64,000 nucleotides of DNA. Source: a virus. Taxonomy: Duplodnaviria; Caudoviricetes. This document shows positions 37,616 through 47,869 of this stretch, in pieces. Position 1 is the first letter of the stretch. Every line of letters begins with the position of its first letter. The DNA is taken from IMG/VR virus record IMGVR_UViG_3300042554_001750; one strand, given 5' to 3'. Both the position numbers and the translations under genes were made by a program. The notes under the pieces were generated by a model. It had not been told where the DNA came from. It made no database searches and saw only the letters and a program-made list of their open reading frames with translations.

Positions 37616-38116
37616 TTAATTGAATAAGTCCTCGTTCCATTCACGGTGACCTTCACGAAAGGCCATGTTTGCTTGTGTCTCTCTAACTTCTACACGGTAG
37701 CACCATAGGCGTTCGCTTTCTCCCGGTCCCCACATGTCAGGAATGTAGACACCATTAACATACTTGTAAAGCATGTCGGCTAGACCTTCACAGCCTAAGC
37801 GTGGAAGTATAGTTAGTTTAGCCATCTTTTTTTCTTGCAACATTTTAAATGTTTCAAGTTCTGGATCATCTTGCGCTACAAGCAATGTATGGTCAAACTG
37901 ATCTTCTAGAATTTTCTTAAGTTCTTTCAATCCACCGTAATCAGCAGCCCAATTGCGAACATCAAGATTATTAGTACCAAAATAAAATTTCATACTAAAA
38001 CTATATCCATGTATCATATTGCAATGACTGTCAGCACGCCATTGACGATACGCACAGGGAAATGCGTCATGGTATTCTTTAGTACTTGTATATTTGTATG
38101 TAATTGGATTATGCAT
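37616..38116 (-). CDS. queD: 6-carboxy-5,6,7,8-tetrahydropterin synthase
   Basis: CAYRQWRADSHC..IHGY, DYGGLK, FDHTL, GCEGLA, VEVRET. Confidence 0.88.
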   Translation of the reverse strand: MHNPITYKYTSTKEYHDAFPCAYRQWRADSHCNMIHGYSFSMKFYFGTNNLDVRNWAADYGGLKELKKILEDQFDHTLLVAQDDPELETFKMLQEKKMAKLTILPRLGCEGLADMLYKYVNGVYIPDMWGPGESERLWCYRVEVRETQANMAFREGHREWNEDLFN

Positions 38117-38196
38117 ATTTTCTCCTATGTTAATTTTAGCATAGGCAGCGGAATTTTTAAAGCGGGACGATGCTGAGACCGCTATACTTATTTACC
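38117..38196 (-). promoter_or_regulatory. structured leader of queD (pseudoknot riboswitch candidate)
   Basis: TAAATA; AGCGG-13 nt loop-CCGCT; TTAAAAA; loop CAGC complementary to GCTG; CCTATG/CATAGG hairpin over SD. Confidence 0.6.
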
Positions 38197-38655
38197 ATTT
38201 TTATTTAGTTCTGTCTCAGCAACTCGTTTACGCAAACTACTTGAACTAAAACTATGATCACGACCGTTGAATACTAATTGTATTCCACGTTTCTCGCAAA
38301 TGGCACGACCAGTAAAATCTTTCTCCATGTACTCAACACCGAGTATACGCACATCAACGGGCAATGTCAAGAGGATATCTTCTAAGTCTTTTTCCGTATT
38401 GTAGACAACTATTTCATCTACAAAGCGGCAAGCACTTAATGTAATTTGGCGCTCTACAATACTTTGTATGGGAGCATTCTTTTCAGGACGATCCCAACTA
38501 GCATTGTTTTGTAATCCACAAATAAGATAGTCACAGTGATTTTTAGCCTCACTTAGCATTGCGACATGTCCGGCATGCAGTAAATCAAATTGGCTAAAAG
38601 TTATACCAATTCGTAAGCCTTGAGCTTTTAATTCTTTAATTCTGTTGAAGATCAT
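38188..38655 (-). CDS. cytidylyltransferase (TagD-like, HxGH)
   Basis: FSQFDLLHAGH, YLICGLQ, IVERQ, RDHSFSSSSLR. Confidence 0.88.
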   Translation of the reverse strand: MIFNRIKELKAQGLRIGITFSQFDLLHAGHVAMLSEAKNHCDYLICGLQNNASWDRPEKNAPIQSIVERQITLSACRFVDEIVVYNTEKDLEDILLTLPVDVRILGVEYMEKDFTGRAICEKRGIQLVFNGRDHSFSSSSLRKRVAETELNKNGK

Positions 38656-40340: not shown

Positions 40341-41375
40341 TCACTTTAAAAATACATCATTAATCTGACGGTTAACACGGATGAATGTGGTGCACTTACT
40401 AAGTTGTTTAAGAGTTGGTGCTCCAACATATGTGCAAGTGCTACGCAAACCTCCGAGTAAATCTAGTACAGTATTTTTTACTGCACCGCGATATTTAACT
40501 TCAACTGTGCGACCCTCACTACTGCGATAATTAGCGACACCTCCGTGATGCTTGTCCATAGCAGTATCACTACTCATGCCATAAAACACTACACGAGGAT
40601 TCTTACCATCTTCACTAATTACTTCGCCTTCGCCTTCATCATGTCCAGATAACATGCCACCCAGCATTACAAAATCAGCGCCAGCTCCGAAGGCTTTAGC
40701 GACATCCCCAGGACAAGTACAACCGCCGTCAGCAATAATGTGTCCACCAAGACCATGAGCAGCGTCCGCGCATTCAATGATTGCTGAAAGTTGTGGATAG
40801 CCAACGCCAGTTTGAATACGAGTAGTACAAACACTCCCAGGGCCAATGCCCACTTTAACAATATCGGCTCCACGTAGAATTAACTCCTGTGTCATGTCAG
40901 CCGTTACTACATTGCCTGCTATGATAGTATGCTTGGGATACAATCTACGAACATCAGCTACAAAATCACCAAAATGTTCGCTATACCCATTTGCAATATC
41001 AATACAAATAAAATGTATTGCAGGATTATCTTCTAGTATGGCTACTAATCTATTTAAGTCTTTTTCGCTAGTTCCAGTGCTTACGGCAAAATAATTGCCA
41101 CCGATATTATCAGTTAATTTAGGAAATTCATCACGACCTAGTGACTTTACTAGACAAGTAAACATCCTATGTTCGTAAAGTGCTACAGCCATAGAAGGAG
41201 TTCCTACACCATCCATGTTAGCTGCCATGACAGGGACTCCAGTCCATTCCCACCCACTATGCTTAAACTGGTATGTGCGAGTTAAATCAACTTCTTTACG
41301 GCTTGCTAGAGTACTACGCTTAGGACGAATCAATACATCCTTGAAATCTAGCTTAATATCATCTTCAATACGCAT
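40341..41375 (-). CDS. guaC: GMP reductase
   Basis: [46 protein letters not shown]. Confidence 0.96.
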
Positions 41376-41430
41376 TAACAATTGCCTCTAATAAAAACTA
41401 ACTATACAACAAAACAACTATAAAACAAAA

Positions 41431-45117: not shown

Positions 45118-45567
45118 TTAGATGGCTAGTTGTTGATAAGGTTGATGTGTTTTATAAGAAATTGTGGCACCGTTCTCACCGTCTTCGGATACGGTAATCT
45201 CAATGTCACGCCCGGGATAACGAGTAGCAATAACTTCATAAAGGTCATCGCTAATCATTTCACAACTCTTGAAATTCAATTCCAATGTGCCTTGGTAGAG
45301 CTTTTCTAGCCAACGCTTGAATTGGATAAACTCAATATCCCTATCGTTGTGAAATACTTGAATGCCTACGTTGAAATGAAAAATATGACGATGGGGAGTT
45401 CCCAAGAAACTTACATCATATTCATCACCAGTGGCAAGATTTGAGTCGGTTGCAGCAGCCGGGTACTTATGAATACCTTCTTTACGAAAGGTCACCCAGA
45501 TCATTCGGCGTGCTCGGTCGCGAATTCTTTCACGCTTTTCAGCCAATGCTTGTTCGTGTTGATTCAT
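45118..45567 (-). CDS. QueD-paralog T-fold protein (DpdL-like, putative CDG decarboxylase)
   Basis: LGTPHRHIF fits LxxxHRHxF; SCEM; VSEDGENG. Confidence 0.7.
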   Translation of the reverse strand: MNQHEQALAEKRERIRDRARRMIWVTFRKEGIHKYPAAATDSNLATGDEYDVSFLGTPHRHIFHFNVGIQVFHNDRDIEFIQFKRWLEKLYQGTLELNFKSCEMISDDLYEVIATRYPGRDIEITVSEDGENGATISYKTHQPYQQLAI

Positions 45568-45941: not shown

Positions 45942-47501
45942 CTATTCTCCTAACGCCTCTGTCATTGCATCATCACTATCAATGATTTCTTCATCAATTT
46001 CGGGTTCTGAATTTTCAAAACTAAACAGTTGATCAAACATAGTCATAGCGTTAACAGTCTTTTTACCACTAATACCCTGACTACCACTTTGCATTTGCGT
46101 CCATAGTTTGCTATGTCGCTCAATAACTTCTAAACTTTCAGCCTTTGTTTTCTTACTAAAGATTTCTTCAATCACATCTTTGTACAGTATACGATCAAAT
46201 GTTTCATTCATCAACATTTTTGGTATAACTCCCTGTTCATATCTACGGTTAGCTTCTTGAACACCATTGATATGCATCCAAACATTGTGACTTTGAACCA
46301 ATGTATAACTTAATGTATCCCAACTAGTTTTAGTTTCTTTACCGTGTTGACCCAAAAAGCCAACACCACGATAGCATAAATCTTTAAGTAAGAGTTTATC
46401 AGTTACTGGACTATCTGTAAATGTATCATGGATACCTTCAGCCAAAACAGCAGTGCTAAATTTGCGAGTATCATTAGCAAAGTTTTTATTTTCTGCGGTT
46501 TTTTCCATACTGTATGACCATTTTTTACCATGCTCAAAACTATTATTGAAATAAGCAAGGCCCTTAGCTGCACCATAAAATGGGCTAGCGCAGTCAAAAG
46601 TAATTTCCAAATTAGGATTGTGATATTTGCGTATTGCCTTTTTAATATCACTAAACAATACCGCATATTCCATGATACTAACACCTAGGCAATGAATTAA
46701 ATCATGTTTGCCCGGAATCAATAATCCATCATAGATAATATCAACTAATCTACGCAACATTAAATGTACATCAATTTTATTCTGACCACCGAATGCCCAA
46801 CCATTAAAATGATTGTCTGGATAGATATTTGGGTCACAATATTTTTTCATTTCAAGATACCAATCATCACTTTGAGTATGATTGCGACCTTGCAATACAT
46901 TTAAGAACTTACATTTGCCCGAACGGTTTTGAATAAAATATTCGTTGTTGATATGTGTAGCAGCAATCGCTTCTTCAATTGTGCTGATACCATGTGCTGA
47001 TTTACCAGTTTTGGGATCTTTGATATGAAAAGTAGTTAGTGACTGTGAAGGAATATCAAGACACATACCATAATCCATGTATGTATCCATCCATGTCAAA
47101 ACTTCCTTGCGCTTTTTCATGGCACGAGGACAGTTAGGATCCTTCCAATCAGCAGGCCACTGGCATTTTAGAATCTGAAATCCACCTGAGTCACCGAGCA
47201 TGAATGTGCCCGGTTCACGCTCACGGATAATGCTTTCATTTGGGTCATCTTTAGTGATATCTAAGTTAGCATGACCAGCACTGTACAATCCCCACTTATA
47301 ATAGTAAAGACCTTGTTGACTGTTTAAGAAATTCAAACATTCAACATCATTATTAAAACCAGCAGGAATCCTTGACTTCTCAAAATATTCCTCACCTTTG
47401 CGTTGCTTACCTAATCCACTGATGTAAAAACTACTAACAGCGGGCAAGAATAATGCCCACTCTGGATTGTGTTTACTAGAAAGATTATCTTGTTCCATCA
47501 T
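45942..47501 (-). CDS. TGT-family base-exchange enzyme (DpdA-like)
   Basis: MLGDSGGFQI, CLDIP, LNVLQG, GWAFGG, HCLGV, FDCASP, SHN; TGT CxCxxC zinc motif not evident. Confidence 0.8.
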   Translation of the reverse strand: MMEQDNLSSKHNPEWALFLPAVSSFYISGLGKQRKGEEYFEKSRIPAGFNNDVECLNFLNSQQGLYYYKWGLYSAGHANLDITKDDPNESIIREREPGTFMLGDSGGFQILKCQWPADWKDPNCPRAMKKRKEVLTWMDTYMDYGMCLDIPSQSLTTFHIKDPKTGKSAHGISTIEEAIAATHINNEYFIQNRSGKCKFLNVLQGRNHTQSDDWYLEMKKYCDPNIYPDNHFNGWAFGGQNKIDVHLMLRRLVDIIYDGLLIPGKHDLIHCLGVSIMEYAVLFSDIKKAIRKYHNPNLEITFDCASPFYGAAKGLAYFNNSFEHGKKWSYSMEKTAENKNFANDTRKFSTAVLAEGIHDTFTDSPVTDKLLLKDLCYRGVGFLGQHGKETKTSWDTLSYTLVQSHNVWMHINGVQEANRRYEQGVIPKMLMNETFDRILYKDVIEEIFSKKTKAESLEVIERHSKLWTQMQSGSQGISGKKTVNAMTMFDQLFSFENSEPEIDEEIIDSDDAMTEALGE

Positions 47502-47869
47502 CCGATTTTAATTTCCATTGATGTAAGTTTCCTTACAATATCAATTTGTTCTTTTTTTTCTTTAATTTGTTTTTGAAGATCAGCAATGGTTGGGTTAGTT
47601 TTTGCTAACTCATTTAGTTCCATTTCTTCTTGGCGTTTTTGCCTTGCCCAATCAAGTAACGATTCAGCTTCGGGCGTCATTGAAACAGTAGAATATCCAG
47701 AAGCCATTTGAATCCAATTAGCTCCATCGTATATTTCAATATTTTGTGTTGAAGTATTAAACCGCATGTTACCAACACCTTGAGATCCACTGTAGTTATT
47801 CACATAAGTAGAGCCCGAGCCGCCGGTAACAGTCAGATATTTTCCACCGCCTGTAATGTTCTTAATCAT
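47498..47869 (-). CDS. hypothetical protein
   Basis: GNMRFNTSTQNIEIYDGANW; C-terminal coiled coil. Confidence 0.7.
   Translation of the reverse strand: MIKNITGGGKYLTVTGGSGSTYVNNYSGSQGVGNMRFNTSTQNIEIYDGANWIQMASGYSTVSMTPEAESLLDWARQKRQEEMELNELAKTNPTIADLQKQIKEKKEQIDIVRKLTSMEIKIG

Follow-up and report, generated by a model that had tools for sequence, protein, structure and literature searches.

A covarying pseudoknot with preQ1-I-like anatomy precedes queD-like genes of large lake phages: a candidate translational riboswitch of uncatalogued type

Locus and regulated gene

The queD-like gene of a jumbo phage, on the minus strand, is preceded by a 71-nt leader that raises the question of whether it acts as a ligand-sensing switch and, if so, of which type and in which direction. 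The window (the whole 64,000-nt stretch analysed here) stems from an uncultured virus, of which a 108-kb fragment (about 31% complete) is on record; complete relatives measure 350-380 kb, and the window sequence was contained in lake-water metagenomes. A preliminary description had proposed a pseudoknot in this leader and a hairpin over part of the Shine-Dalgarno sequence (SD). The letters it relied on were all present on the minus strand, namely the 5-bp AGCGG/CCGCU stem, the 13-nt loop, the A-rich linker and the SD hairpin.

On the minus strand, the leader is preceded in order by an IMPDH/GMP-reductase-family gene, FolE, two small ORFs and a cytidylyltransferase-like gene, whose stop codon (38190-38188) lies 4 nt 5' of the first aptamer helix (P1). 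The QueD-like gene is followed by a 215-aa ORF, a DAO-type flavoprotein, a QueE-like radical SAM gene, a glycosyltransferase-like gene and an epimerase. The regulated gene and its translation start are located as follows:

37616-38116, minus strand: QueD-like T-fold gene (regulated), 166 aa, with a CxxxHGY motif; Pfam PTPS 1.1e-15; PHROG QueD-like 6.5e-37
38114-38126, minus strand: SD AGGAG (38126-38122), spacer and queD-like ATG (38116-38114), read from the sequence

Several features of the surrounding proteins were also recorded. HGY replaced the canonical QueD HGH (CxxxHGY instead of CxxxHGH) in 141 of the 142 QueD-like ORFs linked to the RNA element, in both QueD clades, and proteins of the window clade additionally had A-Y-R at the canonical QueD A-H-R; the HGY-type T-fold proteins may accordingly form a QueD subfamily of their own, in which metal binding or chemistry is altered. 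Some relatives (L005, L030, L034, L050, L147 and others) possessed a QueD N-terminal extension of 27-61 residues that begins directly after the RNA element, and L163 and L177 had a cupin-like or methyltransferase-like ORF at this position instead. The IMPDH/GMP-reductase-family gene (346 aa; 40341-41381, minus strand) heads the cluster 5' of FolE, and may re-route guanine nucleotides during infection. The 215-aa ORF after queD carried only a PHROG 'ferredoxin' label, with no Pfam match and marginal PDB matches (E >= 0.09); a membrane protein was considered and rejected, as the sequence does not have the look of one. ORF 47498-47869 was ruled out as a T-fold protein on examination.

The cultured phage with the nearest QueD was Acidovorax phage ACP17 (52% identity), in which no comparable leader precedes queD and queD overlaps the upstream ORF. 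A megablast of the leader region against GenBank phages gave no match, and a search of the window genome gave no second copy of the element.

Structure of the putative aptamer

The leader folds as an H-type pseudoknot in which a hairpin (P1) is joined by a second helix (P2) between its loop and the downstream tail. Its parts, in 5' to 3' order along the minus strand, are:

38179-38183, minus strand: P1 5' strand AGCGG, paired with 38161-38165
38175-38178, minus strand: L1, UCUC; family consensus N-C-U-U followed by 0-6 mostly pyrimidine bases
38168-38174, minus strand: P2 5' strand AGCAUCG, with a variable distal part and a conserved proximal U-C-A/G
38166-38167, minus strand: L2, UC, its C directly 5' of the P1 3' strand
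38161-38165, minus strand: P1 3' strand CCGCU, the partner of AGCGG, closing the 13-nt loop 38178-38166
38151-38160, minus strand: L3, UUAAAAAUUC, the A-rich linker; family consensus N-U-A-N-A-A-A-Y-U-C
38144-38150, minus strand: P2 3' strand CGCUGCC; the sequestering hairpin starts with its last bases (38145-38144)

P1 was paired in 99.6-99.8% of cells across the family and existed in compensated forms (AGUGG/CCACU, AGAGG/CCUCU, ACCGG/CCGGU and UGCGG/CCGCA). The family P2 spans seven positions, with an invariant U.C mismatch and, adjoining L2, an A-U/G-C covarying pair. Its proximal part consists of the C-G and A-U pairs formed by the conserved triplets flanking this mismatch, and its distal part of 4-5 variable loop bases 5' of U-C-A paired with 4-5 tail bases 3' of U-G-C. 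In the window, positions 38174-38168 face 38144-38150 as A.C, G-C, C-G, A-U, U.C, C-G and G-C, so that its distal P2 is weak: three of its pairs are Watson-Crick, the terminal position is A.C, and about ten other sequences share this variant. The nested-only minimum-energy fold of the leader was unremarkable (z = -0.15), because nested folding is uninformative for a pseudoknot.

Conservation was also strong outside the helices. L1, 4-10 nt long, had C and U at positions 2 and 3 in 123 of 128 variants, with a free choice of first base (U in 52, C in 50 and A in 26 variants). The C of L2 was invariant in the first alignment described below (A1); of the 108 variants of the five-nt class, 102 had U before it and 6 had A. 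In L3, positions U2, A3, A5, A7, U9 and C10 were invariant or nearly so among 126 variants. Binding pockets typically have conserved unpaired bases of this kind, which here comprise the L2 C, the CU of L1, the L3 pattern and the U.C mismatch.

Conservation and covariation across phage leaders

A search with the QueD protein only yielded more than 589 related viral loci, 80 of which were kept for leader inspection. The RNA element was found 5' of queD in 77 of these 80 relatives, all of which had been retrieved by protein alone. Instances added by a pattern scan brought the total to about 175 phage contigs and 128 unique variants.

The preliminary description had proposed that covariation be sought among phage queD leaders, and it was found for both P1 and P2 in two alignments. 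In A1, a plain MAFFT alignment of 56 leaders, 87.4% of the P1 and P2 cells were paired, compared to 33-50% when the partners were slid by 1-3 columns, and the covariation score was 0.318, compared to at most 0.065 in slid registers. Both sides changed in 8 of the 11 pairs of A1; P1 was 99.6% paired and included three compensated pairs. A covariance model containing P1 only (R1) then gave one strong match (37-72 bits) in each of 99 further loci; the window, itself part of the seed, scored 50.1 bits. The 101 matches (95 distinct) aligned by this P1-only model, and hence not fitted to P2, constituted alignment A2, in which 87.4% of cells were again paired, compared to 28-51% in slid registers, with a score of 0.294. 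None of 500 shuffles reached the observed score in A1 or in A2, a control that overstates significance somewhat because related sequences share ancestry. A count based on anchors, without any alignment fitting, found 437 of 512 distal P2 cells paired (permutation mean = 256, sd = 13.6). The first distal P2 pair occurred as all four Watson-Crick types, and 40 distinct distal P2 combinations were seen.

These data confirmed an H-type pseudoknot with preQ1-I-like anatomy before a phage queD-like gene, with a different second helix from the one initially drawn. The pairing of CAGC (38175-38172) with GCUG (38149-38146) can be drawn in the window only, and the family paired 44-60% of its cells. The register 3 nt further 3' paired 80-88%, and the supported P2 is that of 38174-38168 with 38150-38144. 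The second CCGCU, initially taken for a competitor of the P1 3' strand, had to be given another role. At the pair next to L2, loop UCA occurred with tail CUGC in 123 variants and loop UCG with tail CCGC in 4 of 4 (window included), with no exception. CCGC thus appears only where the loop reads UCG instead of UCA, and is therefore one side of a compensated P2 pair and not a rival P1 strand. An anti-P1 role for the CUGC of the relatives, through pairing with the P1 5' strand, was rejected as well, CUGC being constant while P1 varies, and an alternative P2 involving AUGCU of the hairpin arm showed no covariation.

Taken together, the sequence comparisons make it almost certain that the leader contains a real, conserved and covarying pseudoknot coupled to a sequestor of the SD or of the AUG. 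Separately, a degenerate second copy of the aptamer was observed in L107 (positions 5-57; 23.7 bits), with P1 ACCAG/CUGGU and without P2 complementarity; it precedes an ORF for a 309-aa methyltransferase-like protein, and the intact copy follows about 1 kb downstream.

Expression platform and direction of switching

The hairpin that had been described over part of the SD was confirmed, its CCUAUG/CAUAGG arms overlapping AGGAG (38126-38122):

38124-38145, minus strand: sequestering hairpin, CCUAUG (38145-38140), loop CUAAAAUUAA (38139-38130) and CAUAGG (38129-38124); platform minimum-energy fold -6.2 kcal/mol

It buries the AGG of the SD, and its pairing was kept in sequence variants (CCUAUA/UAUAGG, CUCUAUU/AAUAGAG, and forms with U.G and G.U pairs). 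Across the family, the platforms fell into four designs:

Design 1, 74 variants: (C/U)CUAUG...CAUAGG hairpin on the SD
Design 2, 36 variants: long-range GYCRUC...GAUGRC helix burying the start codon
Design 3, 7 variants: GYCAUUG...CAAUGGC, a helix on the AUG
Design 4, 6 variants: GUCU...AGAC adjoining the SD

Compensatory changes were also found within the platforms (CAUC/GAUG against CAUUG/CAAUG; U.G against U-A or C-G). Compared to dinucleotide shuffles, the platforms had a mean z of -1.9, with 99% below zero. In 127 of 128 platform minimum-energy folds, the SD or AUG region was paired with two or more of the five distal bases on the 3' side of P2, and blocking the P2 3' bases cost the sequestor 3.6 kcal/mol on average. 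The P2 pairs at these shared bases covaried with the loop (e.g. GACA/UGUC against GGCA/UGCC) and, as the platform pairing was kept too, both structures must therefore be under selection. P2 and the sequestor are accordingly drawn as mutually exclusive structures, a prediction from the shared bases. A single aptamer was thus combined with four platform designs that all overlap the P2 3' strand, as is generic for riboswitches.

From the observed structure, conservation, covariation, sequestor overlap and gene association, we infer ligand binding, the ON direction and the class of ligand as follows. The 5-bp P1, topped by G-C pairs, would accommodate the A-rich L3 in its minor groove, and the C of L2 (UC) would pair with a heterocycle that presents a guanine-like Watson-Crick face, with P2 stacked above the ligand site. 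At its distal end, the P2 3' strand would contribute 2-4 bases that also start the helix hiding the SD (in the window) or the start codon (in many relatives). When ligand is absent, the sequestering helix would form and queD translation would be low; when present, the ligand would lock P2 and withdraw these bases from the sequestor, and the ribosome-binding site would open.

It is the position of the P2 3' strand within the anti-SD or anti-AUG strand that predicts activation by the ligand (ON), a direction we consider likely provided that the element is a riboswitch. The last position of P2 is an A.C mismatch in the window, which limits its overlap with the hairpin to 1-2 bases, and the two helices could nearly coexist and stack; with the P2 strand blocked, the window sequestor retained about -3 to -4 kcal/mol. 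The textbook logic for biosynthetic genes is end-product repression, and an ON switch on a biosynthetic gene (together with a precursor transporter in some phages) would be physiologically unusual.

Gene association, pathway context and candidate ligands

The gene downstream of the element was QueD-like in 142 of 146 distinct ORFs, which belonged to two QueD clades. The FolE-[RNA]-QueD-...-QueE neighbourhood was constant, QueE usually lying downstream, while the accessory genes varied and comprised either a GT2 glycosyltransferase, a methyltransferase and a B12-radical SAM protein, or a flavoprotein, a glycosyltransferase and an epimerase. FolE lies upstream of the element and outside its translational control. 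In 12 loci (about 7%), including L073 (3516-4136), a gene of the Vut_1/YhhQ family (queuosine-precursor transporter family) directly followed queD.

As previously noted for the window, QueC was found neither in its record nor in a complete 364-kb relative, and other relatives gave only weak, partial matches to the N-terminal part of the QueC model. A DpdL-like gene (45118-45567, minus strand; 149 aa) was present, in which FLGTPHRHIFHF matches the DpdL signature LxxxHRHxF; DpdL is a proposed CDG decarboxylase (PMC10516641). Such a gene was found in all five large relatives examined. Cui et al. reportedly linked such a gene set to 2'-deoxy-7-deazaguanine DNA, and by its gene content the set found here resembles that of 7-deazaguanine-DNA phages. 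A 519-aa 'TGT-like' protein (45942-47501) was considered as a candidate DpdA; it had no Pfam or PHROG match, and its sole PDB sequence match was NurA, at a marginal E = 0.039.

The lack of QueC in these searches, together with the DpdL-like gene, makes CDG or 7-deazaguanine reasonable ligand candidates. Since the tailoring genes vary around an aptamer core that stays constant, one would expect a ligand from the constant core of the pathway or from its inputs, most likely a guanine-faced base or a pterin of the FolE-QueD-QueE-DpdL route. Candidates on this basis would be 7-deazaguanine, CDG, preQ0/preQ1, guanine and a dihydroneopterin-type pterin. For an ON switch, three arrangements would make the most sense: a substrate or precursor could be sensed, e.g. 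dihydroneopterin triphosphate or guanine; guanine released by DNA transglycosylation could serve as a demand signal; or 7-deazaguanine could exert positive feedback.

Comparison with known riboswitches and alternative explanations

The closest known system was the preQ1-I riboswitch (RF00522; types I-III, e.g. those of B. subtilis queC, T. tengcongensis, C. antarcticum and E. coli). The defining positions of this family include a specificity C directly 5' of the P1 3' strand, which follows U in type I and A in types II and III (PMC11625349, a 2024 review). In the leader this C likewise follows a U, which is the type I arrangement; the leader also shares the H-type pseudoknot, the 5-bp P1 topped by GG/CC, the loop-tail P2, and the placement before queuosine/7-deazaguanine genes (here queD, sometimes yhhQ). 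The Rfam PreQ1 model aligned P1, CCC and the A-tail of the window, placing its A-rich tail on L3.

The element nevertheless falls outside recognised Rfam preQ1 membership, as had been suspected. The window reached 14.6 bits against a gathering threshold of 39 (E = 3.3 on 601 nt, with only model positions 6-34 aligned), ten diverse relatives gave no PreQ1 match at E <= 10, and in an Rfam scan of the 64-kb window nothing reached gathering score; the other Rfam matches were chance snoRNA and sRNA ones. The anatomy also differs. P2 has seven positions with an invariant U.C mismatch, compared to 3-4 bp in preQ1-I; L1 is 4-10 nt long (N-C-U-U...) with a first base that is not conserved, whereas preQ1-I has 2-3 nt with a conserved U; and L3, although it has an A-rich core (U-A-N-A-A-A), is 10 nt long with an invariant Y-U-C end that is undescribed for preQ1-I. 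The P2 3' strand is an anti-SD or anti-AUG strand (ON predicted), whereas in preQ1-I the SD or a terminator strand lies in or next to it (OFF). Unlike preQ1-I, the leader element occurs almost only in uncultured lake phages without QueC. The sub-threshold score, the sizes of P2, L1 and L3, the mismatch and the role of the P2 3' strand together place the leader outside the catalogued preQ1-I family, and it probably works like the preQ1-I fold, from which it would descend or on which it would converge.

Other known switches resembled the leader in part. The fluoride, ZTP and guanidine-III ON riboswitches likewise rob an inhibitory helix of bases through a ligand-stabilised pseudoknot, but their aptamer folds and ligands are unrelated, and those of fluoride and ZTP act mostly on terminators and not on SD or AUG sequestors. 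THF-II (the folE motif) and THF-I are likewise cis-regulators tied to GTP cyclohydrolase/pterin genes, and recognise the 2-amino-4-oxo face common to pterins and guanine analogues. They differ from the leader pseudoknot in having hairpin or three-way-junction folds, had no Rfam match here, and are OFF switches before folE and folate genes, whereas here FolE lies upstream of the element.

The likeness to preQ1-I could also mean that the leader is simply a divergent member of that family, binding preQ1 or preQ0 as the bacterial ones do, OFF or ON, in which case the ligand would not be new. The GG/CC top of P1, the specificity C after U and the A-rich L3 all fit such a member, as does its location, which is 5' of a queD-like gene and in 12 loci 5' of queD plus the YhhQ/Vut_1-family transporter gene, a set typical of preQ1 riboswitches. 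It is made improbable by the Rfam scores of the window and its ten relatives, the divergent P2, L1 and L3 lengths with their invariant mismatch, and the use of the P2 3' strand as anti-SD and not as SD; moreover, no QueC was seen in these phages, which would therefore not make preQ0 or preQ1 themselves. About equally unlikely, in our estimation, is a conserved pseudoknot that binds no ligand and serves as the operator of a protein (a phage or host repressor or activator, maybe an enzyme of the pathway), or as a temperature- or Mg-sensitive control of queD. T4-like phages use RNA operators (e.g. RegA and the gp32 pseudoknot) and so offer a precedent, a regA-like gene lies near queD in the relative ACP17, and what was observed here is the structure and its platform, the role of a ligand being deduced from them. 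Such an operator would however leave the invariant single-stranded bases at exactly the ligand-contact positions of preQ1-I, and what the element tracks is queD-like genes, in both QueD clades and amid changing neighbours, and no single candidate partner protein.

Conservation could finally reside in the DNA, as an early-type queD promoter (TTTACA, 17 bp, TGnTATAAT) whose RNA folds are incidental. The window contains a match of 9/12 plus TG:

38133-38161, minus strand: sigma-70-like promoter match, TTTAAA, 17 bp, TG-n-TAAAAT, overlapping L3, the P2 3' strand and the hairpin loop

TGnTAnnnT was found in the hairpin loop of 67 of the 75 hairpin-type variants, with 4-5 of 6 matches to the -35 hexamer at 17 bp, and relatives with the hairpin platform had TTTACA or TATACA 17 bp upstream of it. 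We nonetheless regard a promoter as a very improbable account of the whole element, as it leaves unexplained the compensatory changes in P1 and P2 and the strand-specific G.U pairs. The aptamer is also present in 49 classified variants without the SD-hairpin platform, among which no examined TGnTAnnnT match resembled a real -10 box, and such matches are common in the A+T-rich DNA of the window (19 found, 16.3 expected). Promoter and RNA element may in any case coexist. An embedded promoter may produce an aptamer-less queD mRNA, or the match may be a by-product of A/U-rich loops, and a promoter may account for part of the conservation of L3 and of the hairpin loop.

Other promoter-like sequences lie further upstream. 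A TTGACA-17-TATACT site (38342-38370, minus strand; 11/12 match) is located within the cytidylyltransferase-like gene, about 160 nt 5' of the aptamer, and is a possible start of the leader transcript; in many loci, a TATAAT-like box lies 10-15 nt 5' of P1. In one metatranscriptome, a single 153-nt contig of low depth, which carries no transcript ends and may stem from DNA carry-over, joined the 3' end of the upstream gene to the aptamer of a relative.

Weighing these alternatives, we consider it rather probable that the leader senses a ligand as a riboswitch does, by way of a pocket resembling that of preQ1-I. With less assurance, we lean towards a translational riboswitch of a type not yet catalogued, whose aptamer would be built like that of class I preQ1.

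Distribution and significance

Lake metagenomes contained the element on hundreds of contigs. When 185,579 prokaryote species were scanned, each represented by a single genome, 20 matches resulted, about the number expected by chance, four of which were real (L086, L083, L094 and L101). All four were located on contigs with phage-like gene content in Bacteroidota MAGs, labelled Haliscomenobacter, Crocinitomicaceae, Chitinophagales and an unclassified Bacteroidetes bin; essentially, then, the element is carried by phages. The host may be a member of the Bacteroidota, or phage contigs may have been binned with Bacteroidota. An Eubacteriales match (L090), preceding a WYL regulator, was discarded as chance. 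On the 183-kb Haliscomenobacter MAG contig (L086), the gene order was FolE, HIT, an unknown ORF, radical SAM, [RNA], PTPS, B12-radical SAM, GT2 and methyltransferase.

Searching the literature in full text brought up no account of an element of this kind, and riboswitches go unmentioned in the two main papers on 7-deazaguanines in phages. To our knowledge, phage-encoded riboswitches are rare and none is known for a DNA-hypermodification pathway, and we know of no validated natural ON-acting switch of the preQ1 type. It is conceivable, though we hold it as a tentative proposal, that the element represents a riboswitch class of its own, or a fourth type of preQ1-I with its function inverted, confined to large lake phages. 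Instead of preQ1 it would sense 7-deazaguanine or CDG, guanine set free by DNA transglycosylation, or dihydroneopterin triphosphate, and it would turn on translation of the genes for 7-deazaguanine DNA.

If true, this would be the first riboswitch dedicated to viral DNA hypermodification. The aptamer is small (about 40 nt), and its natural covariation offers ready-made mutant designs. The identity of the ligand would yield a compact new sensor part and a test of how far the preQ1-I fold can be re-wired, and would reveal which metabolite these phages monitor while they replace guanine in their DNA.
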